64,000 bases of DNA from Thermoanaerobaculia bacterium (GCA_035593605.1 DAOSWS010000005.1:52834-116833), one strand, 5' to 3'. Counted from the stretch's first letter, positions 2,061 to 43,707 are shown. A program made the numbers and translations. Notes: a model not told the origin generated them from the sequence alone.

Positions 2061-2067
2061 GGCTGTC

Positions 2068-3522: not shown

Positions 3523-3551
3523 AGCCCCGGGCAAGCCCGGGGCGTTTTTTC
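3523..3551. terminator. bidirectional rho-independent terminator
   Basis: GCCCCGGGC-AA-GCCCGGGGC perfect stem followed by TTTTTT on the + strand and an A/T-rich tract on the - strand. Lies between convergent gene ends 3456(+) and 3581(-). Confidence 0.75.
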
Positions 3552-3580
3552 ATACTGAAGGAGAAAATGCCTTACGGTTC

Positions 3581-5605: not shown

Positions 5606-5683
5606 GGGTCACCTCGAAAATTGGGTTCATTCGTGCGAGTCGATGCATACCGTTCACTCAGAAATACGATGGAATCGTCCTCC

Positions 5684-15318: not shown

Positions 15319-15375
15319 AAGCGTAGTGTAACACATGGAGTGCAATGATCGTGGAAAAATTTCGGAGGTGAATTC

Positions 15376-15810
15376 ATGAACTACACCCTTTGGGGCTGGT
15401 TGATCCTGGCCGCGCTTTTCTTTGTCGCGGAGATGTTCACGGCCGGGTTCTTTCTTGCCTGCTTTGCCGTTGGATGCCTGGGGGCGGCGGGATTGGGAGC
15501 CCTGGGAGTCGGGCTCTGGTGGCAGGTCGGCGCCTTTGCCGTTCTTTCGTTGATCACCTTCTTCTTTACCCGACGGATTGCGGAGAGGGTCACCGGTGAT
15601 CAGCCGATGGGAGTTGGCATTGACCGTGTCCTGGGTAAGCAGGGGCTGGTCCTCGAGACGATTGACACCGTGAGGGCAAAGGGAATGGTCCGTGTCGATC
15701 GAGAAGAGTGGCGCGCAATTACTGAAGATGGGAGTGTGATCGAAGCTGAATCGGTCATTCGGGTTACCGGCGTTGACGGTACCAAGCTTGTTGTCAAAAA
15801 GGAGGAATAA
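15376..15810 (+). CDS. NfeD-family membrane protein (short form, OB-fold C-terminus)
   Basis: Two to three N-terminal TM helices followed by a small soluble beta domain. Immediately upstream of, and coupled to, an SPFH gene, the canonical NfeD-SPFH operon arrangement. Confidence 0.7.
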
Positions 15811-15811
15811 G

Positions 15812-16762
15812 ATGCCTGTCATTTTCGCGTTTGCCCTATTCGTCATTTTCTTTGTCATGATGGGGGTCCGGGTTGTGAAACCCTTCCAGAAGGGTGTTGT
15901 AGAAAGGCTCGGGAAGTACAGGAGAACCGCACATCCGGGAATTACACTGCTCATTCCGATCTTTGACAAAATGCATAAGATAGACATGCGGGAGCAGGTG
16001 GTGGACGTTCCGCCCCAGGAAGTCATCACGAAAGACAACGTTGTTGTAACCGTGGATGCCGTGGTCTATTACGAGGCCACCGACCCGGTCAAGCTGGTGT
16101 ATAACGTCGCGGATTTTTATATGGCGGCTACAAAACTTGCCCAGACCAACCTTAGAAATGTTGTGGGTGATATGGAACTGGATCAGGCCCTCACCAGCCG
16201 GGATGCGATCAATACGAAACTGAGAGAAGTCCTGGATGACGCCACCGATAAGTGGGGAACCCGGGTTGTACGCGTCGAGATTCAGCGTATCGATCCTCCG
16301 GGAGATGTCACCCAGGCCATGCACCGCCAGATGAAGGCCGAGCGGGATAAACGTGCCCAGGTTCTCGAAGCGGACGGTGAAAAACAGGCGAAAGTCTTGC
16401 GTGCTGAGGGAGAAGCCGAAGCCATTCGAAAGGTCGCAGAAGCCAACCGTTTCAAGCTCCTTACCGAAGCCCAGGGTGAAGGGGAGGCGATCACGACGGT
16501 TTTTTCTGCTATTCGAAAGGCGGAACCCGATGACAAGCTGATTGCGATCCGCTATCTCGATGCCCTGAAGGTGATCGCGGATGGAAAAGCCAATAAGCTT
16601 TTTCTCCCCTATGAAGCTTCAGGGATCCTGGGAGCCCTGGGAGGAGTCAGGGAGATTTTTAAGGACCAGGATGAAGGAATGCCGACTCCTCCTGTACCTG
16701 AAAATAAGGGACAGCGTCAGAAGAAAAGCAGGGAAAGCTACAATTTCGAAGGGGAAAGTTGA
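15812..16762 (+). CDS. SPFH/band-7 (stomatin/prohibitin-like) protein
   Basis: GGAGG RBS at 15801-15805 and ATG at 15812, one nt after the NfeD stop. N-terminal TM anchor. Band-7 core (…[19 protein letters not shown]…). Ala/Glu-rich coiled-coil C-terminus. Confidence 0.85.
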
Positions 16763-19199: not shown

Positions 19200-20075
19200 T
19201 CAGTGTCGAAGAGTCCCGATAGCTCGTGAAAGCAGGTTGGAAATCTGAATTCCTGCCTTCAGGTTACTGTCCATCCTGGGGTGATAGCAGGTCACATCCA
19301 TGCCGAGAACTCTTCCCGAGCAGAGAATTATTTTCATAAAGGTTTCGGCTTCGTCAAAGGAAAGCCCATCAAGCTCCGGAAAGCAGACCGGGACCAGCCG
19401 GGGGTCCAGGACATCGACATCGAAGTGAAGCCAGATATTTTCGTTTTTGTTGGAAAGGAAATCCAGTGCCCTTTCAGCGGCTACCTCAACACCATCCATT
19501 TTCATTCTGGCACGGTCTAGAACGGCAATGGAAGTACGGTCGACAAGATCTCTCTCCCGGATTCCGGCAATCACGATGTCACTGTCATCCAGCAGAGGGA
19601 AGTGACCCGGCCAGAGATGGCTCTTCGCCGGACCTCTTCCCGTAAGTAAGGTGGTGATAAGTTCTGCAGCCTCTCCCGAGGGGGAGAGATCCGGCATTCT
19701 GCAATCAGCATGAGCGTCAAAATAGACCAGTCCCGGTTTCCGATCCAGGAGAGCCAGGCCGGCTATGATGCCGTAGAGAATAGCGCAGTCGCCTCCCAGA
19801 ATGAGAAGAAAGTCATCTTTTTTCATCAGACGGGACGTTTCCTTGGCCAGATGTTGCGAAAATTTTTTCCATGCGCTGACGTGGAGGATTCTGGAATCAG
19901 GATCCCTGAATCCATCGCACTCCGGAACGGAGAGGTCTCCTTCGTCAATCACCGTAAGATCTTCTCTCTCGAGGTATTTCAGAATACCTGCCTCACGGAG
20001 TCCATACGCTGGATTTTCCTCCCTGGGTGATGTTCCATCACTGTTAAAGGGTGCGCCAAAGACTCGAACCTTCAT
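19200..20075 (-). CDS. arginase/agmatinase/formiminoglutamase-family ureohydrolase
   Basis: Mn-binding motifs GGDCAI, DAHAD and HFDVDVLDP. 291 aa. Confidence 0.7.
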   Translation of the reverse strand: MKVRVFGAPFNSDGTSPREENPAYGLREAGILKYLEREDLTVIDEGDLSVPECDGFRDPDSRILHVSAWKKFSQHLAKETSRLMKKDDFLLILGGDCAILYGIIAGLALLDRKPGLVYFDAHADCRMPDLSPSGEAAELITTLLTGRGPAKSHLWPGHFPLLDDSDIVIAGIRERDLVDRTSIAVLDRARMKMDGVEVAAERALDFLSNKNENIWLHFDVDVLDPRLVPVCFPELDGLSFDEAETFMKIILCSGRVLGMDVTCYHPRMDSNLKAGIQISNLLSRAIGTLRH

Positions 20076-26396: not shown

Positions 26397-27335
26397 ATGG
26401 AAGGTAACAGGTCCTTCATTCATACGAGTCGCCCGCTGCCGATTCTACTGCTGACGGTAGTGATTGTTCTGGTCTGGATTATGGTACGAGGATTCATACA
26501 ATCGGAGCGAGTCACTGGAGAATGGGAGGCATTTGTTTCTATGGAGGGTGGGCATGTGGACCACTTTGTCTTTTCCCTCCGCCCATCCTGGAGAGGTTTG
26601 AAGGGGATTGTGCTCAGCTACCGTGATGGCCGGCGGATGCCGGACACCATGGTAAGCCGTATCCAATTCCACGACGATGTTGTGACCTTTCGGGTTCCAT
26701 CCAGTGGTGTTCGTTTTAAAGGAACACTGGATCAGGAAGAGGGTCTGATTTCCGGTGTTCTTTTCAACCCGGACGGATCTTCCCGCCCATTTGATCTCAT
26801 GCGGGTTAGGACCGTCTCAGGAGACCAGACAGGCAGGATCGTCGATTCCGCACCTCCTCCCGGGTATGAAACGCCCATGTTTCGGATTCGGACCCTCACA
26901 CCTGCCGATGCGGAAATCGATTATTTGGCGGTTATGAAAAGCCGCGGCAGGATTCGTCAGATTCTGGGAGGTGACTGGCCTCCTGAGGATTTTTCCGTGC
27001 AAAAAAATCGTCGGGAACTGTCCCGGAAAATGAAGGACATGGAGGAGGGTAGAGCCTATACGTACACCGTGATGACACCGGATGAGAGCCGGGCTCTTGG
27101 TTGCATCTACATTATCCCGGAACGGTACGGCAATGTGGATGCCCACATCTTCTTCTGGGCCGAAGAAGGGGCGTGGCAGGAGGGAATGGAACCCATCCTG
27201 GAGGTGGCCGTAAGGGAGTGGCTGGTCCAGTCCTGGCCCTTTGAAAGAATTGACTTTCCCGGCCGCCATGAAGGAGTGATTCACCTCCGAGACCAGGACA
27301 TTCCCGCGGCGGATCGTCTTATCCCCGTGCGATAA
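26397..27335 (+). CDS. hypothetical membrane-anchored protein
   Basis: Start trimmed to Met 26397 to avoid overlap with the divergent gene. N-terminal TM anchor (LPILLLTVVIVLVWIMV). No confident motif. Confidence 0.35.
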   Translation: MEGNRSFIHTSRPLPILLLTVVIVLVWIMVRGFIQSERVTGEWEAFVSMEGGHVDHFVFSLRPSWRGLKGIVLSYRDGRRMPDTMVSRIQFHDDVVTFRVPSSGVRFKGTLDQEEGLISGVLFNPDGSSRPFDLMRVRTVSGDQTGRIVDSAPPPGYETPMFRIRTLTPADAEIDYLAVMKSRGRIRQILGGDWPPEDFSVQKNRRELSRKMKDMEEGRAYTYTVMTPDESRALGCIYIIPERYGNVDAHIFFWAEEGAWQEGMEPILEVAVREWLVQSWPFERIDFPGRHEGVIHLRDQDIPAADRLIPVR

Positions 27336-27362
27336 AAAACCGCCCCCGGAAAGGGGGCGGTG
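27336..27362. terminator. bidirectional rho-independent terminator
   Basis: CCGCCCCC-GGAAA-GGGGGCGG stem. A-run or T-run (GATAAAAAA) on the side serving the minus-strand operon. Lies between convergent stops 27335(+) and 27393(-). Confidence 0.7.
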
Positions 27363-27392
27363 AAGGTTAATCAATTAATCGGAAGACCTTAC

Positions 27393-29000
27393 CTACATCC
27401 GAAAGATGCCAAACCTGTGGTCCGGAATGGGGGCGTTGAGACTCATCGCGATAGACAATCCCAGAACATCCCGCGTTTCCACCGGGTCAATGATCCCATC
27501 ATCCCACAGACGGGCGGTCGAATAATAACAGGAGGATTCGTAAGCATATTTATCCAGGATGGGTTTGCGGATCTCCTCCATCTCCTCCGGAGCCAGTGTC
27601 TTGCCCTTTGCTTCCAGTTGCTGCTGTTTGACCTGGGCCAGGACGTCTGCTGCCTGCTCGCCTCCCATGACGGATATTTTTGCCGTGGGCCACATGAAGA
27701 GCAGACGGGGAAGGTAGCCGCGGCCGCACATGGCGTAGTTTCCGGCACCGTGGGATGCCCCCACGATTACGGTGAACTTGGGTACCTGGGCCGTCGCAAC
27801 GGCATGGACCATCTTGGCGCCGTCTTTTGCGATCCCCCCGTGCTCGTAATCTTTTCCCACGATAAAACCGGTGATGTTCTGCAGAAAGATCAGGGGAGTT
27901 TTACGAACGGAACACATGGAAATAAAGTGAGCGCCCTTCTGGCTGCTTTCGGAAAAGAGTACCCCGTTGTTGGCAACGATGCCCACGGGGTATCCGTGGA
28001 TTCGTGCGAAGCCGGTTACCAGGGTGGAACCGTAGTAGGGTTTGAACTCGTGAAAGTAGGAGCCGTCGACGAGGCGGGCAATCACTTCCCGAATGTCGAA
28101 GGGTTTTCGAAAGTCCCTTGGCATGATCCCGTAGAGTTCCTCGGGATCGTAATAGGGATCTTCCGGCTCTTCACGATGAAGAGGAAACTTGATCGCCGGA
28201 GGGAGGTTCTCGATGATGTTCCGGGTGATTTCCAGGGCGTGCTCATCGTTCAGGGCATAATGGTCGGATACACCCGAGATCTTGCAGTGCACGTCGGCAC
28301 CGCCAAGTTCTTCGGGGGTGACGTCGACACCGGTGGCAGCCTTTACCAGAGGCGGGCCCCCGATGAAGATGGTCCCCTGTTCCTTCACGATGACTGCCTC
28401 GTCGCTCATGGCGGGAAGATAGGCCCCTCCCGCCGTACAGAATCCAAGAACCGTGGAGATCTGCGAAATGCCCAGGGAAGACATTACGGCCTCATTGTAG
28501 AAAATCCTGCCGAAGTGTTCTTTATCGGGAAATGTGCCGGCCTGTTCGGGAAGGAAAATACCCCCGGAGTCTACCAGATAGACGCAGGGGAGGCGGTTTT
28601 CCTGGGCGATTTCCTGGGCCCGGATATGTTTTTTGATCGTCTCCGGAAAGTAGGTTCCGCCCTTGACCGTCGCATCATTGGCAATCACCATGACTTCGCG
28701 TCCGTTCACGAATCCGATTCCTGTAATCATCCCGGCTGCGGGGGCTTCGTCGTTGTACATGCCATTCGCGGCCAGAGCCGAAAGTTCGAGAAAGGGGGTA
28801 CCGGGATCCAGTAATCGTTCAATTCGGTCCCTGGCCAGCAGCTTTCCCCGGGAAATGTGTTTTTCCCGATGATGAGGCGGTCCACCCTCCCTGGTTCGGT
28901 TCAGGACCTCCAGGTACTGAGTTCTGCGTTCCTGATAGAAATCCCGGTTCGCCCTGAATTCGGCGTCCGAGGTGTTGACGGTTGTCTTAAGCCGAAACAT
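27393..29000 (-). CDS. methylcrotonyl-CoA carboxylase beta-subunit-like carboxyltransferase (acyl-CoA carboxylase CT subunit)
   Basis: Full-length carboxyltransferase. Closely follows the MCCC2/LiuB pattern (…[27 protein letters not shown]…[19 protein letters not shown]…LVDSGG…). 535 aa. Confidence 0.85.
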
Positions 29001-29388
29001 CGGGAACGAACTTGTACCCGTAGCAGAGAACTCCGGATAATCCGGCCTGCTGTATTTTCCGGAATTCGGTCTTCACGGCCATTCCGATAGCTATGGAGTC
29101 GGGATCCACATCAACGAGCTGTGCAAAGATCCGGGCTCCATTTTCCAACTCCACTACAGCCATGGCATAGGGGCTTTCATCGTCAAAGGCGGTGGGTGGT
29201 GTATGGATAACCGTAAAGGTCACAACCTTCCCTTTTCCGGGAAGAGAGGTGGGCGTGAACTCGCGGCCTCCACAGGCGGAACAGACCAGGCGTGGAGGAA
29301 AGAATACCTTACCACAGCCCTTGCAGGCATTGGCTTCCAGTCTGTACCTCTGGGGCTTTTCTCTCCAGATCCTTGCCGAAGTTGTCAT
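28987..29388 (-). CDS. DUF35 zinc-ribbon/OB-fold protein (thiolase-HMGCS scaffold)
   Basis: C4 zinc ribbon ([20 protein letters not shown]) followed by an OB fold. ATG shares ATGA with the thiolase stop (29385-29388). Start chosen at Met 44 of the ORF. Confidence 0.75.
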
Positions 29389-30545
29389 GCGTTCACCTCC
29401 AGAATGTGTACGACGGCGCTTCCACCCGAGCCTCCCATGTTCTGGGCCAGGGCACGCCTGGCTCCCTGTACCTGGCGTTCGCCTGCTTCTCCCCGGAGCT
29501 GGGTGACGAGTTCGCAAATCTGGGCAATGCCGGTCGCGCCGACGGGATGTCCCTTCGATTTGAGGCCGCCCGAAGTGTTAATCGGTTTTTTCCCGCCGAG
29601 TGCGGTGTGTCCTTCGAGCTCAAAGGTGCCGCCCTTTCCACGTTCCGCAAAACCGAGGGCTTCGATCACCATGATTTCTGCGATCGTAAAGCAGTCGTGC
29701 ACTTCCGCGAAATCGATATCTTCTGGGCCGATCCCGGCCATGGTGTACGCCTGCTTCGCGGCCTCCTCTGTCGCATTAAGCCAGAGAAGGTCATCACGCT
29801 GATAGAGGGCGATCGAATCCGTAGCCTGACCCGATCCGGCAATCGTCACAATGGGTTTTTTGCAGATTCTTTTTGCGTTCTCCAGGGTGGTCACGATGCA
29901 GGCCGCCGCACCATCCGTGATCGGGGAACAGTCGAAAAGGTGAAGAGGATGGGCTACCAGCGGGGAGTTGACAACCGTATCTTCGTCGATCGCAAGGCGA
30001 TACTGGGCCCTGGGATTCTTCAATCCGTGGGCATGGTTTTTTATCGCAACCCTTGATAGCATTTGACGGGTCGTCCCGTACGCCGCCATGTGGGCGGTAG
30101 CCATCATGGCATAGAGTCCCGGAAAGGTAACCCCAAGGAAGGACTCGTAATCGGCATCCGCTGCCGTTCCCAGGGCGAAGGTCGCGTCTCCTCCGGAAAC
30201 GTCGGTCATCTTTTCAACGCCGCCCGCTAAGACGATTTCATGCATGCCGGATGCAACGGCGGCGGCCGCACAACGCAGGGCTGCGCCGCCTGAAGCGCAG
30301 GCGGATTCCACTCGTGTTCCGGCAATATACTTTTGCCCGAGGTAATCGGCCATAAGGGATCCGATGTGCTCCTGGTTGTTAAAGAGTCCCGGGCTCATGG
30401 ATCCGACGTAGAGCGCATCAACGTGATCGACGCCCGCATCCTTTACGGCTTCCAGGGAGGCTTCAACAAACAGGTCTCTCAGTGATTTTTCCCACAGTTC
30501 TCCGAACTGTGTCATTCCAATTCCGATAATGGCTATATCTTTCAT
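29385..30545 (-). CDS. thiolase (acetyl-CoA C-acetyltransferase, SCP-x/archaeal type)
   Basis: Thiolase fold with active-site Cys (…[11 protein letters not shown]…) and C-terminal …HDCF…GH…G catalytic residues. 386 aa. Confidence 0.85.
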
Positions 30546-30559
30546 GACTGTATCCCTTC

Positions 30560-31621
30560 CTAGCTCTCGTTGGCCTTACGGATCTTGTGACGGAACTTTG
30601 CATAGGATCCGTAGTCGAGATAGATCTGTCCCTTATCCAGGTAAAACCGGGTCGTCAACGCCTTTTTCTGGACAGCAGGAAGTTTATCTGTGGCGGTAAA
30701 AATGAACCCGTCGCTACCGGCACCGGAGCCGAACGAGGCCATGAAGATCTTGTCCCCGGGCCTGGCAACATCGAGAATGGCTGTCAGTCCAAGGGGTGAG
30801 GCTCCCGAGTAGGTATTTCCAAGGAGAGGCACAAGCCACCCGGTTTCCATCTGTTCCCGGGTGAAGCCGAGCATTTTTCCAACTCGCATCGGAAATTTTC
30901 CGTTGGGCTGATGAAATACGGCATAGGCAAAATCTGAAGGTTTCATTCCCGATTTTTCCAGCAGGGCTCTGGCGCAACCCGTGATGTGGTGAAAGTAAGC
31001 GGGTTCCCCGGTGAATCGGGCTCCATGCTGGGGATAGTGCTGATACTCCCTTCTCCAGAAATCGGGTGTGTCCGTCATGTAGGAATGGGTAAAGTCCACG
31101 GACGCAAGAACCCCTTCGCCTTTTCCGAAGATGAAGGCGGCCGCACCGGCTGCGGCTGAGTATTCAAGGGCATCACCGGGCGCTCCCTGACTGGTATCGG
31201 CTCCGATTCCCAGGGCAAAGTTCATCTCACCGGACTTAACGTGGGAATAGGCAATGTACATGCCTTCCGATCCTGCTTTGCATGCAAATTCAAGATCGGC
31301 ACAGTGTATGTGGGGCGTGGCTCCGATAGCATCTCCCACGACTGTTCCCGAAGGCTTGACAGCATAGGGGTGAGATTCCGATCCGATGTAAATCGCACCG
31401 ATGTCGGCAGGGTTGATTCCCGCCCGCTTCAGGGCGTTCCGCGCGGCTTCCACGGACATCGTGATGACGTCCTGATCTGGTGCAGGAACCGATTTTTGAG
31501 TAAGGGCAAGCCCACGTTTGTAGCTCTCCGCATCCGCACCCCAGACCTTGGCAATTTCGTCAGCCTTGATCCGGTATCGGGGAATATAAGAGCCGTAACC
31601 TATGATTCCGATCATGTACAC
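30560..31621 (-). CDS. hydroxymethylglutaryl-CoA synthase, archaeal type
   Basis: N-terminus [25 protein letters not shown]…[21 protein letters not shown]…[11 protein letters not shown] matches the short archaeal-type HMGCS. 353 aa. 14 nt upstream of the thiolase. Confidence 0.85.
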
Positions 31622-31731
31622 CTCCTTAGATTGCTTGCATTTCCCGAGTTGGCAAACTCAAAGGACAGTGGGCAGAGTATAGCATAGCCCGACGGGGGAT
31701 TTGCGTTGTTCTTTGATTCGTATTTCCAGTT

Positions 31732-32304
31732 TCAAGCTCTTCCTTTGCTTGCACCTGCACCGAATCCGCCGGCGATAAGATGCGCTGCCCGCAGTGCCTC
31801 CGGAATATGACCGCAAAGGGTTATTTCTGGAATAATGGATGCGATTTCCATTTCCTGTAATCCCGCCGTCTGAATGTAGAGCGGACCGACACGAAGGGGG
31901 ATGCCCGCCCTTTCTATGACTTTATATCGGGCGGAAGGGCGGGAGAGGTTTCCGAGTGCGGAGCGAATGGATGCAAAGTCGGGTTTCTTGCGCATCGTGA
32001 CAAGGACCGGCTTTCCGGTCATTCTGTGAAGGGTGTGGATGTCAACGATATTGAAACCGGCAAGGGTGATTCCATCGAGTACGACCAGGTCGATCTGGTG
32101 AAAAAAACGGCGGCCAATCATGGCCGCCAATTGTCTGGTTGCGTTCCATCCATCCTGGGTGATCGTGGTTGTAAGGACACCTTCCAGATAGTCACGTCCT
32201 CGATAGAGGGCACCCACGACCAGGACGTTGCGCGTCACGTCCCGTCGAAACGGGGCATCATCGATGCCCAGGACTCTAATTTGCTTTCTGTGCGGCGAAT
32301 TCAA
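31732..32304 (-). CDS. conserved hypothetical protein (DUF99/UPF0215-like)
   Basis: N-terminal RVLGIDDAPF motif and size about 190 aa resemble the mostly archaeal DUF99 family. Assignment from memory only. Confidence 0.35.
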   Translation of the reverse strand: MNSPHRKQIRVLGIDDAPFRRDVTRNVLVVGALYRGRDYLEGVLTTTITQDGWNATRQLAAMIGRRFFHQIDLVVLDGITLAGFNIVDIHTLHRMTGKPVLVTMRKKPDFASIRSALGNLSRPSARYKVIERAGIPLRVGPLYIQTAGLQEMEIASIIPEITLCGHIPEALRAAHLIAGGFGAGASKGRA

Positions 32305-36087: not shown

Positions 36088-36468
36088 TTGAAAGCGTTAG
36101 GCCTGCATCTGTTGATTGAACTCCATAACTGTGATTCTAAGCTTCTCAACAATGAAGCCATGTTGAGAAAGATCCTTTATACGATTGCGCGCCGAAGTGG
36201 CATGACCCCGTTGAAAGATTCTTTTCATGCCTTTACGCCCCACGGAGTGTCAGGTGTTGTACTCCTGGCGGAATCCCACGTCTCTGTCCACACGTGGCCG
36301 GAACTGGGTTACGCGGCGGTAGATTTCTTCACCTGTAATCTTGAGACCGATTTGTCCCTTGTTGAGAGGATGATGCTTGAATCCTTCAAGCCCTCTCACC
36401 ATGAAGTGATTGTCCAGGATCGGGGTGAGCATGTTCACGTGCCCCAGCGTGTGATCTGCGCTGACTGA
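36088..36468 (+). CDS. speH: S-adenosylmethionine decarboxylase proenzyme, class 1B
   Basis: Self-cleavage/pyruvoyl motif LLAESHVSVHTWPE. 126 aa. Confidence 0.85.
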   Translation: MKALGLHLLIELHNCDSKLLNNEAMLRKILYTIARRSGMTPLKDSFHAFTPHGVSGVVLLAESHVSVHTWPELGYAAVDFFTCNLETDLSLVERMMLESFKPSHHEVIVQDRGEHVHVPQRVICAD

Positions 36469-36471
36469 TTC

Positions 36472-37365
36472 ATGAACTCTTCCCCTCAAAGACATCAGGA
36501 TATCTGGTGGTCTGATATCGAAGGACCTGGAATGAAGGTTTCGATTCGGGTCAGAAAAGTTCTTCACCAGGAAGAGACTCCGTTTCAATCCCTTCTGATT
36601 TTTGAGTCTCTCGATCTCGGGAATGTGCTGGTTCTGGATGGAGCCCTGCAAACGACGCAGAAAGATGAATATTTTTACCATGAACAGTTGATCCATCCGG
36701 CGATCATGGTTGCACCGGATCGAGGGTTGGATGTTCTCCTGATCGGAGGAGGGGATGGGGGAGCGGCGAGGGAAATTCTCAAGCACCCCTCCATTCGAAA
36801 TCTCCATATGGTTGAGATCGATGAACGGGTCGTCACCATGTGCAGAGAGTACTTCCCTGAATTATGGAAGGATGCCAGGGGTCAGGACATTATGAAGGAT
36901 CCCCGGTACAGCCTGACCATCGGAGATGGTCTCGAGTGGGTAAGAAACATGAAGAATACGGGACAGAAGGTCGATATCGTCTATGCGGATGTGTCCGATC
37001 CTACGGGGCCGTCCCTGAGCATCTTCGGAACTGAATTTTACAGAAATGTTCAGGCTGTGTTGCAGGAAGACGGTATCTTTGCGTTCCAGGCCGAGAGTCC
37101 TCTCGGCATGGGATCGGTTCACGAACAGATTCTTACCTGCGCACGCAGTGTTTTTGGAAAGGTTTTTCGCTATACCGGTCCCGTTCCAACCTATCCGGGA
37201 GGGATGTGGTCTTTCGGATTTTGCAGTTCGAAAAATCCTTTACTGACGTCCCCACAATCCTTTGCTGAAGTCGTGGACCGCTATGAAGCCTTATTGGAGA
37301 GAGGAATCTCTTTACGTTTTTATGATCCGTGGTGGCATCGCCACGCCTTTACAGACTTTGTGTGA
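36472..37365 (+). CDS. speE: spermidine synthase (polyamine aminopropyltransferase)
   Basis: VLIIGGGDGG SAM/dcSAM motif. …DVSDPTGP… motif. 4 nt downstream of speH. Confidence 0.85.
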   Translation: MNSSPQRHQDIWWSDIEGPGMKVSIRVRKVLHQEETPFQSLLIFESLDLGNVLVLDGALQTTQKDEYFYHEQLIHPAIMVAPDRGLDVLLIGGGDGGAAREILKHPSIRNLHMVEIDERVVTMCREYFPELWKDARGQDIMKDPRYSLTIGDGLEWVRNMKNTGQKVDIVYADVSDPTGPSLSIFGTEFYRNVQAVLQEDGIFAFQAESPLGMGSVHEQILTCARSVFGKVFRYTGPVPTYPGGMWSFGFCSSKNPLLTSPQSFAEVVDRYEALLERGISLRFYDPWWHRHAFTDFV

Positions 37366-37512: not shown

Positions 37513-38037
37513 ATGTGGACATTGATCTGCAGGGCTCCCTCGGGTGAAAAGCACATTTATCTCGAGAATGAAGAGTACGCCATTGGATCAGACCCGACAT
37601 GTGACATCTATCTTCCATTTCCCGGCGTACGAAGAGTCCACGCGCTCCTGACTCGAGATACACACTCATATTTTATCCACCCGTTGAAGGGTGTCGCAAA
37701 GCCCATGCTGAACGAAAAGGCGATTCATGATCCTGTTTCCCTGAAGGATGGGGACCGGTTCAGCCTTGGTGACGTGGTGCTGGAAATTCAAATGAAAAAA
37801 GCAGAACCGCTGGCCATGGAGTCTCTGTGGCTCAGCGCGCTGGCGAAGATTCTGGAGCAATATGTGAGTGTCCTGGGTGTTCTGGATCTTGAAACGTTAC
37901 TGGACCTTGTCCGGCAAATCGCTCTCAAGGAGTCGTTGAAGAGGACAAATGGCAATATCCGGGCGGCTGCTGATCTTCTTGGCATATCCAGAAACGGACT
38001 GTACCACCTGATGGATCGACTCGACATTCATCGTTAG
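37513..38037 (+). CDS. FHA-domain protein with C-terminal Fis-type HTH
   Basis: N-terminal FHA fold (…YAIGSDPTCDIYL…GVRRVHALL…). C-terminal HTH_8-like (AAADLLGISRNGLYHLM). No AAA+ module. 174 aa. Confidence 0.6.
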   Translation: MWTLICRAPSGEKHIYLENEEYAIGSDPTCDIYLPFPGVRRVHALLTRDTHSYFIHPLKGVAKPMLNEKAIHDPVSLKDGDRFSLGDVVLEIQMKKAEPLAMESLWLSALAKILEQYVSVLGVLDLETLLDLVRQIALKESLKRTNGNIRAAADLLGISRNGLYHLMDRLDIHR

Positions 38038-38061: not shown

Positions 38062-41000
38062 TTAGTCGAAGAGAATAGTGGAAATGTCAAATTGCTTCAC
38101 GAAATCAGCAGCATCTCTGGCCGTCAGGGGACGTGAAATATGGTACCCCTGGGCATAGTTGCATCCCAGATCTTTTAGCGCACGGATCTGCTCGGCCATC
38201 TCGACGCCCTCTCCCATGACCTTCATATTCAGGTGATGGCCCAGCGAAATAATAGTAGATACGATTTCCGAACGGTCTTTGGGAGACTTCATCTTCATAA
38301 TGAAAGATCGATCAATTTTCAGAAAATCCAGAGGAAACTGATGCAGGTAACTCAAGGATGAATATCCAGTGCCAAAATCATCCACCAGGAGCTTGACTCC
38401 CAGTGCCTTCAGCTGAAACAGGGTGGATGTGACATCTTCTACCCGTTCCATGATCATACCTTCGGTGATCTCCAGGCCAAGAGAGTCGGGAGAAAGGTTG
38501 CATATGCGGAGGGTTTCACCGATGAATTCGGGAAGGTCAGGCTGGTAGAGAATGTGGTTGGAGAGGTTAACGGTGCAGGACAGATCTGCGCTTTCCTTCG
38601 TGAGGGATTTCCATTCCGAAAGTTGCCGGCATGTTTCTCCAATGACCCACCGATCAATCTCCGCCATATAGCCGGCATCGGTTGCGATCGTAAGGAAGTC
38701 ATCAGGTGTCATCAATCCCCGCTCCGGATGCTTCCATCGTATGAGGGCTTCAAAACCGTGAACTTTGGACAGATCCAGGTTAATAATCGGTTGGTAATGA
38801 AGGTTGAATTCCTTCCGGTTTAACGCGGATCGGAGCTCGTTCTCAAGCTTGAGGATGGATACGGCCCGGGCATGCATGCCGGCTTCAAAGATGGCGTAGG
38901 AGCCTCTGCCCAGAACTTTTGCCTTGTACATGGCTGATTCGGCATCCCGGAGATAGAGCTCCGGGCGGCTGTGAGCGATATGACTGAAGGAAATTCCGAT
39001 ACAGGCTGAGGTGTAGATTTCATGTTCGCCAATCGTGATGGGAGACTGGAAAGAGGTCAGGATCCGATCTGCCAGACGCGTAACCTCGGAAGGATCTTCA
39101 ACATCCTCGACCAGGATGGCGAACTCGTCTCCTCCGAGCCTTGCAACCGTGTCTCCGGGAAGGAGGCTGCCGCGGATTAATTCTCCGGTTCGTATCAACA
39201 GACGATCTCCGATGAGGTGCCCCAGGCTTTCGTTTATCACCTTGAATCGATCCAGATCGATGTGCAGAACAGCAAATGTGGTTTCTTCACTGCGACGGGT
39301 GCGCTCGATCGCCTGACCGAGACGGTCGGTGAAAAGTGCACGGTTGGGAAGAAGGGTCAGTGCATCGTGAAACGCGTCATGGAGAAGCTGCTCCTCTGCT
39401 CTCTTCCGATCGGTGATGTCGGTCTGGGACCCCGCCATTCGTATGGGACGGTTTTCCTCATCCCGCACGGCCATGCCCCTGGCAAGAACCCAGCGGTAGG
39501 TACCATCCCGATGGACGATTCGGAATTCTCTTTCAAAATGGGGCTCGAGGCCAGCCAGGTGAGCCTGAAAAGCACTTTCCACTTCCAGCCTGTCATCCTC
39601 ATGAATCCGTTCCAGCCATTCTCCAGGTTTGCTGCTTATCTCTTCCTCCGCAAATCCAAGCATCGATTTCCACCGGGGTGAATAATAAACCGTGTCATGC
39701 TTTAAATCCCAATCCCAGAGGCCGTCGTTGGCGCCTTTTGCAGCCAGTGCATAGCGGAGTTCACTTTCCTGAAGAGCCGTTTCAGATTTTTTCCGGTTTG
39801 AAGATTCTACCGCAAGGGAAACAAGGTCGGCCATCGATGCCGCGAAGAGTTCCTCATCAAATTCCCACGCTCTTCTTGGGCCAATATGTTCATGACAGAG
39901 GATCCCGATCACTTCTCCGCCGATACGGATCTGGGCATCGATCATGGAGGAAATGTGGTTTGGTTTCAGGTAGCCATTTGCAAATTCTCGCGTTCGGGGA
40001 TCGGTGAGCACGTCGTCGGTGGCTATCGTGCGGGATTCCCGGATCGATTTAAAATAGACCGGGAAATCCGCGACGGCGAGCTGGATACCGGAATCGTGAA
40101 AATCATCGCTTCGCGAATAGAGGTCAATACAGTCTAATTGTTTTCCGTCGCCCGAGAACATCCATACACTGACGCGCTCGACATCAAGGGTCTCTGCGGC
40201 TTTCCGGGTAACCTGACGGATGAAAGCAGGGAGATCGCCATGGGAAAGCTCGGCGCTTTTCGTCAGATCCAGCAGAACCCTGTTCTGGGTTCGAAGACGG
40301 TGATCACTGTCGCGAATAATGCTCTCCGCCCTTTTTCGATCCGTGATGTCGCGGCCGATTCCCTGTAAGGTTCCATCGGGTAGACGGACTGCGGAGATTT
40401 CCACGGGGAATTCCGTTCCATCTTTTCTTTTGAATGTCCGCTCAAGAAGGACCGCACGCTTTTCCCGTAAAGACGGTATCTGAAGGGGAAGGCGTTTCAG
40501 ATCTCGCTCTGGAATCAGTTCAGTGTACAATTTTCCGATTAATTCTTCCTTTGAATACCCTGTCATATTGCATGCAGCCTGGTTGACCTGGAGAATTCGG
40601 GCATCGTCACTGACAATGTAGATGGCATCGGAAGCCTGTTCGATGAGCGTCCGATAACGTACTTCACTTTCGATCACTGCACGCTGGGATTTGACGATCG
40701 ATGTAATATCTTCCACGGTTCCATCGTAGTACAGTACTTCTCCGGCGTCGTTCCGAACGACAGTCGAATTTTCCCTGACAAAGAGAGAGGAACCATCTTT
40801 CCTTTTCCACTCCGCCTCAAACCCCTGAATCGTTCCTGAAGCATGGATGACTTCCAGAAATTCTTTTCTGGTGCATGCATCTTTGTATCCCGATTCTCGG
40901 ACATCGATGGAAGAGAGGTCCTCAAACGATGAATAACCCAGCATGGAAACCAGCGCAGGATTCGCCATCAATACCTTTCCGTCAGGCGAAGTCCGATAGA

Positions 41001-43707
41001 TCCCGATGAGGGCGTTTTCATAGAGGCTTCGGAATCGTTCCTCCGATTCACGGATTCGTTCCTCCGAGAGCTTCTTTTCCGTAATGTCATCTTCGATCCC
41101 GATCATGTGCGTGATCGCGCCGTCATCATCTTTCAGAGGAGAAACGGTGAGGTGGACCCAGAATAGTTCACCGGTCTTTTTCCGATTCACAAGTTCTCCA
41201 GACCAGACGTCACCTGCTTTCACCGTTCTCCAAAGGTTCTCATGTACCTGCGGATCGTGATAGTCGGATTGAAGAATATCCGGTGTCTTCCCGATTGCCT
41301 CTTCTCGCGGCCAGCCGGTCACCTGGACGAAACGCTCGTTTACGTACTCGATCGCCCCTTCTGGATTGGTAATAATGATAATACTGCCACTTTGCTCCAC
41401 GGCACTGGAAAGCATGCGCAGTTGAGCCTGTGTCTTTCTTTCCCGGGTCGTATCTCGAATCGTTCCAAGGGTGGCAGGGGCGCCCATGTACTGGATTAAT
41501 CCTGCTGTGATGTGACAGTAAAGACGATGGCCCTCTTTGTGAATGAGGCGGATGTCATATTCAGAGGGAATGCTTTCCCCTGCCTGCCTTCGTGCATATC
41601 GGTCCAGCACCATCTCCTTGTCTTCGGGCGCGAGGATGTCTTCGTACGACACGGCCATAAACTCGGGGTGGGTGTAGCCCAGCATTTCGGCAAAGGCCTC
41701 GTTGGCGAAGATCATCTTTTGCCCCTGAAGGAGAAAAACGCCGTCGTGGATGTGCTCCACCAGAGTGCGGTAATGTTCTTCCGATTCCTTCAGCCTCTGT
41801 TCTGACCGCTTCTGATCCGTGATGTCTTTCAGGGTTCCCAGGCTGGCCACGCTGCCTTTGTAATTCAACAGACCGACGTGCATGAAAACATGGACGCGGG
41901 AACCATTCCGGTGGAGAAGCCTGAATTCGTATTCATCCGGAACGTCCTCTCCAGCCTGGCGTTTTGTGTACCGATCCACTACCCAGTCGTGGTCCTCCGG
42001 GGCGATGATGGAGTCGAAGGGGAGGGAAAGCAGGTCATTGGAACTCATTCCGACCATGCGGGCGAAAGCTTCGTTGACGTATTTGAAAATGTTGTCCTGG
42101 ATTAGAAAGACACCATCTTGGATGTTTTGAAGGAGAGTCCGGTAGTGTTCCTCCGATTCCCGAATTTTTTCTTCCGCCTGCTTCGACTCCGTGATATCAC
42201 GTACAATTCCGCAGATGGAGTGAACCCTGTCCCCTTCCATCTCCAGAGGGACCTGTACGGTATGAAAATAGTGGATTTTTCCACCAATGGTCAGTTCTCG
42301 AATTTCATCGACGATCTCTCCGCTGAAAGCCGCATTATCGACTTCCCGAATAATGGTGGCCGCTTCCGGAGGAAAGAGATCTTCAGGACACTTGCCCAGA
42401 AGCTCTCTCTGGGAGACTCCAAAGAGACGGGCCATGGAAGGATTGACAAAGGTGTACCTGCGGTCCATGTCCTTTATGAAGATGGAGTCTCGCGCGGTTT
42501 CGGTGATGGCTCTAAACCGCGCCTCGCTCTCTTTTACCTTCTTTTCGGCCCTGCGAAGTTCTTCAAGGTTTCTTACAAGAGCGACGGCAATGGGTTCATT
42601 TTTTCCCGTGCGCAGAACTTCTCCGATTCTCCGGAGGCGGACTTCCACGGGAAACTGCGTACCGTCGGCTCTTTTTGCCATCCATTCCACATCGACGGAT
42701 TCCCCGTCCAGGGCTCGTTTGACATATTGAAAGGCCTGCTCCTTTGTGCACCCGTCTCCCATGAACTGTTCGGGATCGTTCTGAAGGATTGCATCCTTAG
42801 AACATTGATACGCCTTCAGGACGTTGGCATTGACGTCGATCAGGCGTCCATCCGCTCCGTGGATAAAGATCATGTCGGGGGATGCATCGTAAATCGCCTG
42901 GAGAAAATCTCTCGCTTCCCTCAGGGATTCTTCCGCATGAACTCTCTCGGTCACATCCTCACCCGATGAGAGGGTGTGCGTGATGAACCCGTTCTCATCC
43001 CGGAGGTAGGTGTTGCGCCATTCGATCAGCCGCTCATCCCCCTTCCTGGTCCGGACCGGGTTGGCGTATTCAGTGAAGGCCTGGACCTGCCCGTGGATCA
43101 GGGATTCAAATACTCCCTTCAGCTCTCCCGCCATCCGGGAGGGAATAAAGGAGTCAAACCAGTTCTTTCCCACAATTTCAGAGACGGAATAGCCAAGAAT
43201 TTCAGCACCCTTCCTGTTGATATGGACAATTTGTGCCTGTGGATTCAGAATTAGAAGGATTACGTTTGCGACATCAAAATACTTCTGAGCCAGGTCGCGC
43301 TGGTGTTCCAGCTCCCGGATGACCGCGATCCTCTCGCTAATGTCTCGAAAAAGTCCCAGAACATGGGTCTTTCCCTCAATTACGAGATTTTTTGCGCTGA
43401 TTTCGACCGGGATGCGCTTTCCGCTGGAATGAACCACTTCCAGCGGCTCGGATATCGCTTTCCCTAAAGCCTTATGATCCTGGAAAATCTTTCTGTAGCG
43501 CTCCCGATCTTCGGGCGGGTGCAGTTCTGACTGATGCTTTCCCAGGATCTGGTCCCGGGGCAGTCCGAGCAGTTCCTCAGACCGGTGGTTGATTTCTACG
43601 ATCACGCCCCTGTCGTCGGCGATAAAAATGGCATCGTTCGCACTGTCCAGAAACGAACGTGCTTCCTCCGGCAGATGGAAGATTCCTGAATCAGACTCAG
43701 GGTCCAT
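38062..43707 (-). CDS. multi-PAS/GAF sensor diguanylate cyclase/phosphodiesterase (GGDEF-EAL)
   Basis: About 10 PAS/PAC units (recurring …NEAF…G(Y/W)…E(E/D)…G motifs) and a GAF. GGDEF (RLGGDEFAIL). C-terminal EAL domain (…QPI…EALIRW…, DDFGTGYSSL). 1881 aa. Confidence 0.85.
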   Translation of the reverse strand: MDPESDSGIFHLPEEARSFLDSANDAIFIADDRGVIVEINHRSEELLGLPRDQILGKHQSELHPPEDRERYRKIFQDHKALGKAISEPLEVVHSSGKRIPVEISAKNLVIEGKTHVLGLFRDISERIAVIRELEHQRDLAQKYFDVANVILLILNPQAQIVHINRKGAEILGYSVSEIVGKNWFDSFIPSRMAGELKGVFESLIHGQVQAFTEYANPVRTRKGDERLIEWRNTYLRDENGFITHTLSSGEDVTERVHAEESLREARDFLQAIYDASPDMIFIHGADGRLIDVNANVLKAYQCSKDAILQNDPEQFMGDGCTKEQAFQYVKRALDGESVDVEWMAKRADGTQFPVEVRLRRIGEVLRTGKNEPIAVALVRNLEELRRAEKKVKESEARFRAITETARDSIFIKDMDRRYTFVNPSMARLFGVSQRELLGKCPEDLFPPEAATIIREVDNAAFSGEIVDEIRELTIGGKIHYFHTVQVPLEMEGDRVHSICGIVRDITESKQAEEKIRESEEHYRTLLQNIQDGVFLIQDNIFKYVNEAFARMVGMSSNDLLSLPFDSIIAPEDHDWVVDRYTKRQAGEDVPDEYEFRLLHRNGSRVHVFMHVGLLNYKGSVASLGTLKDITDQKRSEQRLKESEEHYRTLVEHIHDGVFLLQGQKMIFANEAFAEMLGYTHPEFMAVSYEDILAPEDKEMVLDRYARRQAGESIPSEYDIRLIHKEGHRLYCHITAGLIQYMGAPATLGTIRDTTRERKTQAQLRMLSSAVEQSGSIIIITNPEGAIEYVNERFVQVTGWPREEAIGKTPDILQSDYHDPQVHENLWRTVKAGDVWSGELVNRKKTGELFWVHLTVSPLKDDDGAITHMIGIEDDITEKKLSEERIRESEERFRSLYENALIGIYRTSPDGKVLMANPALVSMLGYSSFEDLSSIDVRESGYKDACTRKEFLEVIHASGTIQGFEAEWKRKDGSSLFVRENSTVVRNDAGEVLYYDGTVEDITSIVKSQRAVIESEVRYRTLIEQASDAIYIVSDDARILQVNQAACNMTGYSKEELIGKLYTELIPERDLKRLPLQIPSLREKRAVLLERTFKRKDGTEFPVEISAVRLPDGTLQGIGRDITDRKRAESIIRDSDHRLRTQNRVLLDLTKSAELSHGDLPAFIRQVTRKAAETLDVERVSVWMFSGDGKQLDCIDLYSRSDDFHDSGIQLAVADFPVYFKSIRESRTIATDDVLTDPRTREFANGYLKPNHISSMIDAQIRIGGEVIGILCHEHIGPRRAWEFDEELFAASMADLVSLAVESSNRKKSETALQESELRYALAAKGANDGLWDWDLKHDTVYYSPRWKSMLGFAEEEISSKPGEWLERIHEDDRLEVESAFQAHLAGLEPHFEREFRIVHRDGTYRWVLARGMAVRDEENRPIRMAGSQTDITDRKRAEEQLLHDAFHDALTLLPNRALFTDRLGQAIERTRRSEETTFAVLHIDLDRFKVINESLGHLIGDRLLIRTGELIRGSLLPGDTVARLGGDEFAILVEDVEDPSEVTRLADRILTSFQSPITIGEHEIYTSACIGISFSHIAHSRPELYLRDAESAMYKAKVLGRGSYAIFEAGMHARAVSILKLENELRSALNRKEFNLHYQPIINLDLSKVHGFEALIRWKHPERGLMTPDDFLTIATDAGYMAEIDRWVIGETCRQLSEWKSLTKESADLSCTVNLSNHILYQPDLPEFIGETLRICNLSPDSLGLEITEGMIMERVEDVTSTLFQLKALGVKLLVDDFGTGYSSLSYLHQFPLDFLKIDRSFIMKMKSPKDRSEIVSTIISLGHHLNMKVMGEGVEMAEQIRALKDLGCNYAQGYHISRPLTARDAADFVKQFDISTILFD

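Follow-up and report, generated by a model that had tools for sequence, protein, structure and literature searches.

A four-gene operon from a Thermoanaerobaculia MAG of an uncultured, peptidase-rich anaerobic-digester bacterium joins an archaeal-type HMG-CoA synthase (HMGCS), a thiolase and a DUF35 protein to the beta subunit (carboxyltransferase, CT) of methylcrotonyl-CoA carboxylase (MCC), and this gene order probably marks an undescribed route from leucine to acetyl-CoA that does without HMG-CoA lyase. A search of the literature found no prior description of a trio-MCC operon. We consider it very likely that trio and MCC are parts of a single functional module. Our best reading, to which we give about an even chance, is that this operon supplies half of a divided seven-to-eight-gene module serving the isovaleryl-CoA <-> acetyl-CoA stretch of metabolism, with the trio in place of the lyase.

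The four-gene operon

All four genes lie on the minus strand of the window, by which we mean the whole stretch of 64,000 nucleotides that was analysed, and they read as one tightly coupled operon closed by a terminator. The intergenic leader upstream of HMGCS (31616..31731, minus strand) holds the ribosome-binding site AAGGAGG at 31627-31621 and, we presume, the operon promoter, the position of which we infer because a consensus promoter scan of the leader gave no confident sigma-70 match. Upstream of the operon, across a gap of 110 nt, lies an unrelated Endo_dU gene (31732-32304). HMGCS (30560..31615, minus strand) probably starts at ATG 31615, 7 nt past the ribosome-binding site, within an ORF that reaches GTG 31621, and the resulting length of 351 aa is also that given by gene callers. 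Its stop codon is separated by 14 nt from the start of an SCP2-type acetoacetyl-CoA thiolase (29385..30545, minus strand, 386 aa; Thiolase_N and Thiolase_C_1), which in turn overlaps the ATG of the DUF35 gene by 4 nt (ATGA). The DUF35 scaffold protein (28987..29388, minus strand, 133 aa) consists of a zinc ribbon (zf-ChsH2, PF12172) and an OB fold (OB_ChsH2_C, PF01796), and its gene overlaps that of the carboxyltransferase (27393..29000, minus strand, 535 aa) by 14 nt. A strong Rho-independent terminator (27331..27361, minus strand) begins about 30 nt past the carboxyltransferase stop. Its GC-rich hairpin and T-run occupy 27361..27339, the 9-bp stem containing 8 GC pairs and enclosing a loop of 5 nt, and the ORF beyond it is encoded convergently on the other strand.

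The identities of the trio and the carboxyltransferase were assigned by profile and structure-database searches. HMGCS scores above the cut-offs of both archaeal-type equivalogs (NF003274, 532 bits; TIGR00748, 507 bits with a cut-off of 353), whereas its score of 101 bits against the bacterial equivalog TIGR01835 falls below the cut-off of 360. It also aligns end to end with chain I of PDB 6ESQ (445 bits), its NCBI protein name is hydroxymethylglutaryl-CoA synthase, and residues Glu82, Cys114 and His237 are present here and invariant across 131 bacterial homologues. The thiolase matches NF004720 with 535 bits and PDB 7YVY with 381 bits, slightly more than the 362 bits for chain A of 6ESQ; Cys83, the HDCF motif (H283) and the GHP motif (H333) are invariant in 105 homologues. 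For the DUF35 protein, chain E of 6ESQ is matched with 120 bits, and the CxxC...CxxC motif is kept in 93% of 108 homologues. With its catalytic motifs all intact the trio is, judged by sequence, a bona fide thiolase/HMGCS/DUF35 channeling complex. The carboxyltransferase is a full-length, two-domain protein (Carboxyl_trans, 506 bits) for which the closest solved structures are MCC-beta enzymes. Over residues 4-535 the alignment with MCC-beta of Pseudomonas aeruginosa (3U9R, 735 bits) is free of visible gaps, and M. tuberculosis AccD1 (723 bits) and human MCCC2 (717 bits) score similarly, compared to 442 bits for geranyl-CoA carboxylase beta (GCC-beta), about 245-290 bits or less for PccB-type enzymes, and 165 bits for GcdA. 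We class it as a canonical MCC-beta rather than PccB or GcdA. The initial annotation had proposed these four identities, this affiliation and the translational coupling of the genes, all of which are borne out, and it was also right in its idea of an operon linking HMG-CoA with the chemistry of 3-methylglutaconyl-CoA.

The non-adjacent alpha partner

The carboxyltransferase had further been described as lone and as a possible 3-methylglutaconyl-CoA decarboxylase. It is true that no alpha subunit adjoins it, given that homologues of biotin carboxylase (BC), biotin carboxyl carrier protein (BCCP), enoyl-CoA hydratase (ECH), acyl-CoA dehydrogenase (ACAD), HMG-CoA lyase, AtuA and IcmF were all absent from the window and from the 10 kb past each end. 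A second contig of the same MAG, however, carries an ECH-BC-BCCP operon, of which ECH, of the LiuC/AtuE-like kind, is the first gene. The three MAG assemblies and the JGI sample that yielded this contig are also those of the window, and protein P0260 of the operon has accessions (HPR64121/HUM30017/HXK68294) from the three series to which those of the window proteins belong; the assignment of both operons to one organism is based on binning, on which three independent MAG assemblies concur. The carboxyltransferase is therefore lone by position only, and is not an orphan. Because ECH, BC and BCCP are found in the same MAG, and lie directly 3' of the carboxyltransferase gene in relatives, we take the protein to be a biotin- and ATP-dependent MCC beta subunit, which in all likelihood would work with BC and BCCP as a normal MCC. 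The presence of BCCP with BC and ECH in this MAG, though not immediately outside the window, comes close to the adjoining alpha subunit that the initial annotation had itself named as evidence against its reading, and it lends no support to decarboxylation of 3-methylglutaconyl-CoA by a biotin-independent carboxyltransferase. In the neighbourhood of the two operons of this MAG, no ACAD was detected.

Conserved gene order and direction of flux

Our survey covered related loci of more than ten phyla, about 160 in all, seeded by the carboxyltransferase in genomes or by HMGCS in metagenomes. Of the genome loci seeded by the carboxyltransferase, 67 extend far enough upstream; in 49 of these the trio immediately precedes the carboxyltransferase on its own strand, and in 57 it is located within 10 kb. 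Similarly, 28 of 35 HMGCS-seeded metagenome loci, each with at least 4 kb downstream, have a carboxyltransferase within 4 kb. This arrangement is far beyond chance. Most related loci, including the closest relative (L168), have the order HMGCS-thiolase-DUF35-CT-ECH-BC-BCCP, often with an ACAD, and the same order is present in Gemmatimonadota CP070758.1 and JADGCS01. Downstream of the carboxyltransferase, ECH is found in 33 and BC in 31 of 41 informative loci. The BCCP of L168 gives a BT_MCC_alpha match, and in another locus (L119) the module comprises eight genes with unrelated genes on both sides. The ECH adjoining the carboxyltransferase is nearest to the gamma-carboxygeranoyl-CoA hydratase (LiuC/AtuE) group, its best NCBIfam matches being PRK07468 and gamma-carboxygeranoyl-CoA hydratase. 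ACADs flank many related clusters, that of L119 matching butyryl-CoA/short-chain dehydrogenases (Bcd/SCAD) with 403 bits compared to about 250 bits for isovaleryl-CoA dehydrogenase. Other neighbours are a 3-hydroxyacyl-CoA dehydrogenase, a second thiolase, and MCM or IcmF, together with, in a minority of loci, a LeuDH-like and butyrate-kinase-like pair, a CoA transferase and a putative carbonic anhydrase.

HMG-CoA lyase, by which this pathway is normally concluded, is absent from the trio-bearing clusters within the loci scanned. Searches by tblastn and motif scans detected a lyase homologue in one of 174 sequences (2.5 Mb), L081, a cluster of the classical ACAD-CT-ECH-fused-alpha-lyase kind whose contig shows no trio; the contrast between lyase and trio is thus that of a single lyase-bearing locus, which extends just 1.8 kb upstream of its carboxyltransferase.

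We assign roughly equal weight for and against a catabolic direction, in which a liu-type module for leucine or isovalerate would use the trio, running backwards, in place of the lyase. With leucine or isovalerate as carbon source, ACAD would oxidise isovaleryl-CoA to 3-methylcrotonyl-CoA, which BC, BCCP and the carboxyltransferase would convert, with ATP and bicarbonate, to 3-methylglutaconyl-CoA, and hydration by ECH would then give HMG-CoA. HMGCS in reverse would turn HMG-CoA and CoA into acetyl-CoA and acetoacetyl-CoA, the latter being passed to the thiolase through the shared CoA site, so that the net reaction of the trio would be HMG-CoA + 2 CoA -> 3 acetyl-CoA. Since free acetoacetate would never be released, one thioester, and potentially one ATP, would be gained over the lyase route. 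The thiolase condensation costs roughly +25 kJ/mol and the HMGCS reaction offsets this by a similar amount, which brings the sum near zero; with the overall reaction of the complex this close to equilibrium, the module could therefore run forwards under other conditions. HMG-CoA synthase is held to be practically irreversible in the biochemical literature, which counts against a reversed trio, and such a complex is not known to carry reverse flux. Nevertheless, the company of an ATP-grasp biotin carboxylase and ACADs, joined at some loci by the LeuDH-like, butyrate-kinase-like, CoA transferase and carbonic anhydrase genes, points to catabolism.

An anabolic direction, a corrected form of what the initial annotation suggested, would start with synthesis of HMG-CoA from acetyl-CoA by the trio and its dehydration by ECH to 3-methylglutaconyl-CoA; the carboxyltransferase with BCCP would decarboxylate this to 3-methylcrotonyl-CoA, and a Bcd-type dehydrogenase would reduce it to isovaleryl-CoA, able to prime the synthesis of iso-branched fatty acids or to yield leucine through reductive carboxylation. 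Synthesis is the sole direction characterised for the trio, as seen through homology to 6ESQ, the L119 ACAD resembles Bcd-type enzymes, which are reductive in anaerobes, and nearby IcmF-like mutases could also provide branched primers. In addition, at least one member of these lineages, Ignavibacterium album, is without genes for branched-chain amino acid synthesis (PMC3362086), and a route from HMG-CoA to isovaleryl-CoA exists in myxobacteria (PMC7756340). We nevertheless regard the anabolic direction as unlikely: the conserved ATP-grasp biotin carboxylase would have no role in decarboxylation unless it made ATP, which is physiologically not known, neither the window nor the annotated neighbour families showed a GcdB-like membrane decarboxylase subunit, myxobacteria carry out the decarboxylation with AibA/AibB and not with MCC, and the company of LeuDH-like, butyrate-kinase-like, CoA transferase, MCM and carbonic anhydrase genes fits degradation and carboxylation.

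It seems equally improbable that HMG-CoA is not handed over between the two halves at all, the trio serving general acetoacetyl-CoA/HMG-CoA or storage-polymer metabolism in mere co-regulation with short-chain acyl-CoA genes while a lyase elsewhere ends leucine catabolism. Synteny is held over more than ten phyla and in both search directions, the trio is found beside ECH even where the carboxyltransferase is missing (L106, L121, L128), as expected if HMG-CoA is the link, and the carboxyltransferase keeps to the trio where the alpha subunit has been displaced (this window, L009, L016, L018, L021, L026, L036). Independence of the two halves would, on the other hand, account for the 7 of 35 HMGCS-seeded loci with a trio and no carboxyltransferase, L145 having the trio alone, for a spacing of DUF35 and carboxyltransferase that ranges from an overlap up to 3.6 kb, with other genes inserted, for the Kapabacteria-type loci, in which the trio is about 7 kb away on the opposite strand, and for the division of the module over two contigs in this genome.

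In haloarchaea and trypanosomatids leucine carbon goes into isoprenoids, which would suit a supply of mevalonate, and HMG-CoA is the metabolite common to both halves of the module. That the trio (from acetyl-CoA) and MCC with ECH (from leucine) both make HMG-CoA for an HMG-CoA reductase (HMGR) encoded elsewhere, which would turn it into mevalonate, much as the archaeal trio feeds mevalonate (PMC12960953) and as the initial annotation had entertained, is nonetheless very improbable, given that scans of the window, both 10-kb extensions, 160 seeded loci and four further loci gave neither an HMGR (DAMGxN) nor a GHMP-kinase motif, that bacterial MVA genes normally form clusters and are concentrated in other phyla, with MEP found in 58 of 59 phyla, and that the phyla with trio-MCC clusters are absent from those named as holding most bacterial MVA genes (PMC6107057).

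Relation to known systems

The trio complex of Methanothermococcus thermolithotrophicus (PDB 6ESQ/6ET9; Vogeli et al. 2018, as cited in PMC12960953) is matched chain by chain by the three subunits encoded here, with the catalytic Glu, Cys and His present in HMGCS, the HDxF motif and Cys in the thiolase and a zinc ribbon of the Cys4 type in DUF35, and in both cases the three genes are adjacent and predicted to be co-transcribed. In contrast, the present trio occurs in a bacterial host and shares its operon with MCC-beta, to which relatives add ECH, BC, BCCP and ACAD; there are no mevalonate genes nearby, and the proposed direction is reversed.

The liuRABCDE cluster of P. aeruginosa corresponds to the module through LiuB, the 3U9R enzyme with which the carboxyltransferase aligns, and through the LiuC-like ECH, the BC and BCCP with the function of LiuD, and the ACAD in the position of LiuA that relatives add. 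It differs in that the cluster described here contains the trio and no LiuE (HMG-CoA lyase), in that the alpha subunit is split into a BC of about 500 aa and a BT-BCCP of about 170 aa instead of the fused form of about 650 aa (as in L081), and in that the ACAD is no clear isovaleryl-CoA dehydrogenase and the module, in this genome, forms two operons on different contigs.

With the alternative isovaleryl-CoA pathway of Myxococcus xanthus (MvaS, LiuC, AibA/AibB, AibC) the module shares HMG-CoA, 3-methylglutaconyl-CoA and 3-methylcrotonyl-CoA as intermediates, as well as the clustering of HMGCS with an enzyme acting on 3-methylglutaconyl-CoA; the M. xanthus synthase is of the bacterial MvaS type, unlike the archaeal-type HMGCS with thiolase and DUF35 in this operon. 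The analogy to myxobacteria drawn in the initial annotation is a loose one, because 3-methylglutaconyl-CoA is decarboxylated there by AibA/AibB, according to the abstract of PMC7756340, and not by a carboxyltransferase, whereas a biotin-dependent carboxyltransferase with BC/BCCP is encoded here and Pfam scans of the window ORFs gave no AibA/AibB-like protein of the CoA-transferase family. GcdA of the sodium-pumping glutaconyl-CoA decarboxylase (PDB 1PIX, 3GF3) likewise belongs to the carboxyltransferase family, acts on the gamma carbon of its enoyl-CoA substrate and is the obvious template for a carboxyltransferase that decarboxylates, but its score is far below that of MCC-beta, and an ATP-dependent BC is present in this genome. 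Finally, the Friedel-Crafts acyltransferases PhlACB and MucABC (PDB 5M3K, 9SKH) have the same three-protein architecture and are derived from the HMGCS/thiolase/DUF35 complex, with loss of HMG-CoA synthesis and rewired catalytic residues (PMC12960953). The window HMGCS, in contrast, keeps Cys114, and it matches structures of the PhlACB/MucABC type with 200-214 bits compared to 445 bits for 6ESQ.

Four-gene operon and the identity of its products

The operon occupies the minus strand of the window. Its HMG-CoA synthase (HMGCS) ORF spans 31621..30560, with a likely ATG start at 31615 directly 3' of AAGGAGG and a 351-aa product that independent gene callers also predict, and the thiolase gene (30545..29385) starts 14 nt past the HMGCS stop. 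The ATG of the DUF35 gene (29388..28987) overlaps the thiolase stop codon (ATGA), and the carboxyltransferase (CT) gene (29000..27393, 535 aa) begins at an ATG lying 14 nt inside DUF35. The initial annotation had described this layout at 27393-31621, with its four genes and its ATGA and 14-nt overlaps, correctly in every detail. Sequence reading and a terminator scan place a 9-bp GC-rich hairpin and a T-run 3' of the CT stop, where the next ORF is convergent, and a sigma-70 promoter scan upstream of HMGCS gave no confident site. The GC content of the operon is that of the surrounding DNA. In Pfam scans of the window ORFs, the Endo_dU gene upstream of the operon and the rest of the 64 kb proved unrelated to acyl-CoA metabolism, and nothing relevant to the operon was found in the 10 kb past each window end. 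A 484-aa plus-strand ORF (27360-28814) runs antisense to the CT gene; we take it to be a putative shadow ORF because the minus-strand product has strong homology.

NCBI names for the operon genes are generic. In profile searches HMGCS scores above the cut-offs of both equivalog models of the archaeal type (532 and 507 bits), and with the bacterial MvaS model it reaches 101 bits, below the cut-off of 360. Matches to the subunits of the thiolase/HMGCS/DUF35 complex from Methanothermococcus thermolithotrophicus (6ESQ) reach 445 bits for HMGCS, 362 for thiolase and 120 for DUF35; this structure is the best match for HMGCS and DUF35, and for the thiolase 7YVY ranks slightly above it (381 bits). Glu82, Cys114 and His237 of HMGCS are invariant across 131 bacterial homologues, as are Cys83, HDCF and GHP of the thiolase across 105, and the DUF35 zinc-ribbon cysteines are kept in 93% of 108. 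The PhlACB/MucABC acyltransferases, which derive from the same complex, score far below 6ESQ, and the retained catalytic cysteine together with these far higher 6ESQ scores rules out an acyltransferase of that type. The CT aligns with Pseudomonas aeruginosa methylcrotonyl-CoA carboxylase (MCC) beta over residues 4-535 without visible gaps (735 bits), with human MCCC2 at 717 bits and with Mycobacterium tuberculosis AccD1 at 723 bits, as against 442 bits for geranyl-CoA carboxylase beta, at most about 290 for PccB-type enzymes and 165 for GcdA. Because MCC-beta proteins score 717-735 bits and other types no more than 442, the choice between MCCC2, GcdA and PccB affiliation raised at the outset falls to MCC-beta by bit-score ranking, and PccB, AccD and GcdA identities are ruled out by the same ranking.

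The four proteins correspond to NCBI HPR63159-62, HUM29018-21 and HXK67423-26, all labelled as Thermoanaerobaculia bacterium MAGs (Acidobacteriota), and several public assemblies (JGI, ENA, Logan) contain the contig; from the sample codes we take these to be anaerobic-digester samples. Peptidases are numerous in the window and its extensions (tricorn-like, M1, S41 and S9), and the host looks strongly proteolytic. Among them are a 1066-aa tricorn-like protease (5684-8884, minus strand), near which a DUF3373 protein is paired with a multihaem cytochrome c (414-3456, plus strand), and an M1 peptidase (13474-16038). The window also encodes a polyamine set of S-adenosylmethionine decarboxylase and spermidine synthase (36088-37365, plus strand), with two arginase-family (agmatinase-like) genes apart from it (19200-20075, minus strand; 43848-44663, plus strand). 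An 1881-aa signalling protein (38062-43707, minus strand) carrying about ten PAS domains, one GAF domain, and GGDEF and EAL domains adjoins a small FHA and Fis-type HTH protein (37513-38037). Further along, an 1887-aa ORF lacking a Pfam match (52846-58509, minus strand) adjoins a giant Ig/PKD-repeat protein (58905-63944, minus strand) that runs past the window end and is 3156 aa long in locus L086.

A conserved module of trio, methylcrotonyl-CoA carboxylase and hydratase

A scan seeded with the CT, taking one genome per species, returned 80 loci at 67-73% identity, in MAGs labelled Zixibacteria, Aminicenantes, Acidobacteriota, Ignavibacteria, Kapabacteria, WOR-3, KSB1, Eisenbacteria, Edwardsbacteria, Stahlbacteria, Phycisphaerales and others. 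The HMGCS-thiolase-DUF35 trio lies directly upstream of the CT on the same strand in 49 of the 67 loci that have at least 1.5 kb of upstream sequence, and within 10 kb in 57 of them. Reciprocally, an HMGCS-seeded scan of metagenome contigs returned 80 loci (68-76% identity), and of the 35 loci extending at least 4 kb past DUF35, 28 carry a same-strand MCC-beta no further than 4 kb away. In three loci the trio adjoins an enoyl-CoA hydratase (ECH), with no CT in between. Translational coupling of DUF35 to CT is ruled out as a general trait, the gap ranging from an overlap to 3.6 kb.

Clustering of flanking ORFs, with Pfam searches on representatives, gave the typical order HMGCS, thiolase, DUF35, CT, ECH, biotin carboxylase (BC, ~500 aa) and biotin carboxyl carrier (BCCP, ~170 aa), often followed by a 3-hydroxyacyl-CoA dehydrogenase, a second thiolase, two acyl-CoA dehydrogenases (ACADs) and a further ECH; in some loci an ACAD stands immediately 5' of HMGCS. 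Where the trio is upstream of CT and at least 6 kb lies downstream (41 informative loci), CT is followed by ECH in 33 and by BC in 31. The module ECH is nearest the gamma-carboxygeranoyl-CoA hydratase (LiuC/AtuE) group. Independently called genes with precomputed Pfam matches show this order again in JADGCS01, in a 5-Mb Gemmatimonadota contig (CP070758.1) and in L168 (GCA_002402485.1), which holds the nearest HMGCS relative (78% identical) and a BCCP with a BT_MCC_alpha match. The eight genes ACAD-HMGCS-thiolase-DUF35-CT-ECH-BC-BCCP have unrelated genes on both sides in L119, whose ACAD is Bcd-like; identification of the ACAD as isovaleryl-CoA dehydrogenase is unconfirmed.

Further recurrent neighbours are a methylmalonyl-CoA mutase or IcmF-like fused mutase, a CoA transferase, AtuA and a small cupin. 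In eight loci the module adjoins a butyrate-kinase-like member of the acetokinase family and a LeuDH-like dehydrogenase of the Glu/Leu/Phe/Val type (367 aa); in one of these, L057, an IS200-like transposase separates ECH from BC. A putative carbonic anhydrase (Pro_CA_2) immediately 5' of ACAD-HMGCS (L018, 4781-5170; also L026) fits the bicarbonate-consuming, carboxylating direction. Most MAGs whose module includes or adjoins the AtuA-family protein (PF07287 plus an AtuA ferredoxin-like domain, ~600 aa) are labelled Ignavibacteriales. Its gene lies between DUF35 and CT in six loci and upstream of HMGCS in three, a placement that may hint that AtuA takes part in the metabolism of methyl-branched acyl-CoAs. 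In a Kapabacteria-type variant (nine loci), a fused B12 mutase resembling IcmF (1088 aa) lies upstream of CT, joined in six loci by a DUF6125 protein, with two divergent ACADs and the trio on the opposite strand ~7 kb away. A Cupin_2 protein (~110 aa) is found directly 3' of CT in eight loci of WOR-3-like and unclassified MAGs, mostly without adjacent ECH or BC.

Motif scans and tblastn across 174 sequences (2.5 Mb of gene neighbourhoods) revealed HMG-CoA lyase in a single locus and none in the trio-bearing neighbourhoods. The trio, MCC and LiuC-like ECH form one conserved module, with no lyase in these neighbourhoods.

The carboxyltransferase partner in the same MAG

The window arrangement, with four genes only, is a recurrent minority (8/41 informative loci). 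A search seeded with BC from the closest relative turned up P0260, a Thermoanaerobaculia-labelled biotin carboxylase of 501 aa, whose accessions (HPR64121.1, HUM30017.1 and HXK68294.1) fall in the three MAG series that also contain the window proteins and whose contig, like the window contig, is present in JGI sample 3300010350. On this second contig (L171/L172, 9261-11985), genes for ECH (250 aa), BC and BCCP (160 aa, IIESMKMEH) overlap by 13 nt and 4 nt, and all three products best match the genes that follow CT in related clusters. Upstream of these genes is a gingipain-like Peptidase_C25; downstream are an SSF transporter and a protein of the aconitase family. The two operons are joined to one organism by binning, on which three assemblies agree. 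The module is split into two operons in the Thermoanaerobaculia MAG, the ECH-BC-BCCP operon being the detached half, and, judged by sequence, the window CT is the beta component in an ordinary MCC that depends on biotin and ATP. The initial annotation had proposed a free-standing, biotin-independent decarboxylase; because the CT has a BC/BCCP partner encoded on the second contig of the same MAG, and these genes are CT-adjacent in relatives, that proposal loses its basis and is ruled out. The myxobacterial precedent invoked for it is inapplicable because isovaleryl-CoA formation there uses AibA/AibB (PMC7756340).

Direction of the trio and the terminal step of leucine catabolism

A liu-type gene set normally ends with HMG-CoA lyase. 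The one lyase-bearing locus, L081 (Dehalococcoidia MAG, 223-7151), has the classical liu order ACAD-CT-ECH-fused alpha-lyase, and the lyase-versus-trio contrast is drawn with this locus. Its alpha subunit is fused (651 aa, AMKM), whereas trio-type clusters have split BC and BT-BCCP; the trio is absent from its 10-kb contig, which has only 1.8 kb upstream of CT. A homologue search confirmed the 308-aa L081 protein as HMG-CoA lyase, the 120 homologues listed of 8000 matches being mostly Chloroflexota relatives of the query.

Thiolase condensation costs about +25 kJ/mol, which the HMGCS step offsets by a comparable amount, so that the net reaction of the trio is near equilibrium. We tentatively propose, at slightly less than an even chance and from gene content, a lyase-free, all-thioester route of leucine/isovalerate catabolism, widespread in uncultured bacteria. 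Isovaleryl-CoA would be oxidised to 3-methylcrotonyl-CoA, carboxylated to 3-methylglutaconyl-CoA and hydrated to HMG-CoA, which the trio, in reverse, would convert with 2 CoA to 3 acetyl-CoA. The archaeal reaction is pulled forwards by channelling, which could also drive the reverse, given HMG-CoA supply and acetyl-CoA drain, and one thioester would be conserved relative to the lyase route. Candidate carriers, named just as tentatively, are Acidobacteriota/Thermoanaerobaculia, Aminicenantes, Zixibacteria, Ignavibacteria, Kapabacteria, KSB1, WOR-3, Eisenbacteria, Gemmatimonadota and others. That the trio runs catabolically in place of the lyase seems to us about evenly balanced; this direction is favoured by the ATP-grasp carboxylase, by the neighbouring genes for a putative carbonic anhydrase, a CoA transferase and the LeuDH-like and butyrate-kinase-like proteins, by the beta-oxidation genes and by a host that looks proteolytic.

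The opposite, anabolic direction towards isovaleryl-CoA would agree with the known synthetic direction of the trio, with the Bcd-like neighbouring ACAD and with at least one member of the cluster-bearing lineages that lacks branched-chain amino acid synthesis (PMC3362086); the conserved ATP-dependent BC speaks against it, and we consider it unlikely. It is similarly improbable that the trio and the MCC genes are merely co-regulated, with a lyase encoded elsewhere, a reading with which variable spacing, opposite-strand arrangements and trio-only loci are consistent. Convergent supply of HMG-CoA to mevalonate, the other role first suggested, is very unlikely and finds no support, HMG-CoA reductase and GHMP-kinase motifs being absent from the window, its 10-kb extensions and the related loci scanned, and bacterial mevalonate genes being usually clustered and concentrated in other phyla, with MEP near universal (PMC6107057).

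If the proposed lyase-free route is correct, it would be the first case of HMG-CoA synthase running backwards physiologically. The six carbons of HMG-CoA, the carboxylated leucine skeleton, would all end up in acetyl-CoA, with one extra energy-rich thioester per leucine and a higher ATP yield when amino acids are fermented or respired. The route would also account for the archaeal-type complex kept in bacteria of MEP-rule phyla, require another reading of 'HMG-CoA synthase' matches in bacterial MAGs, now often taken as mevalonate-pathway markers, and offer metabolic engineering a reversible, channelled acetyl-CoA/HMG-CoA interconversion. Full-text literature searches found no description of a trio-MCC cluster and none treating the DUF35/archaeal-type HMGCS complex together with MCC or leucine catabolism. 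In the textbook view HMG-CoA synthase is one-way and HMG-CoA lyase is the sole exit from leucine catabolism; a channelling complex in the lyase's place suggests a different picture for many uncultured protein degraders that abound in sediments and digesters. We rate the terminal enzyme system as what differs from the known liu/MCC leucine modules.
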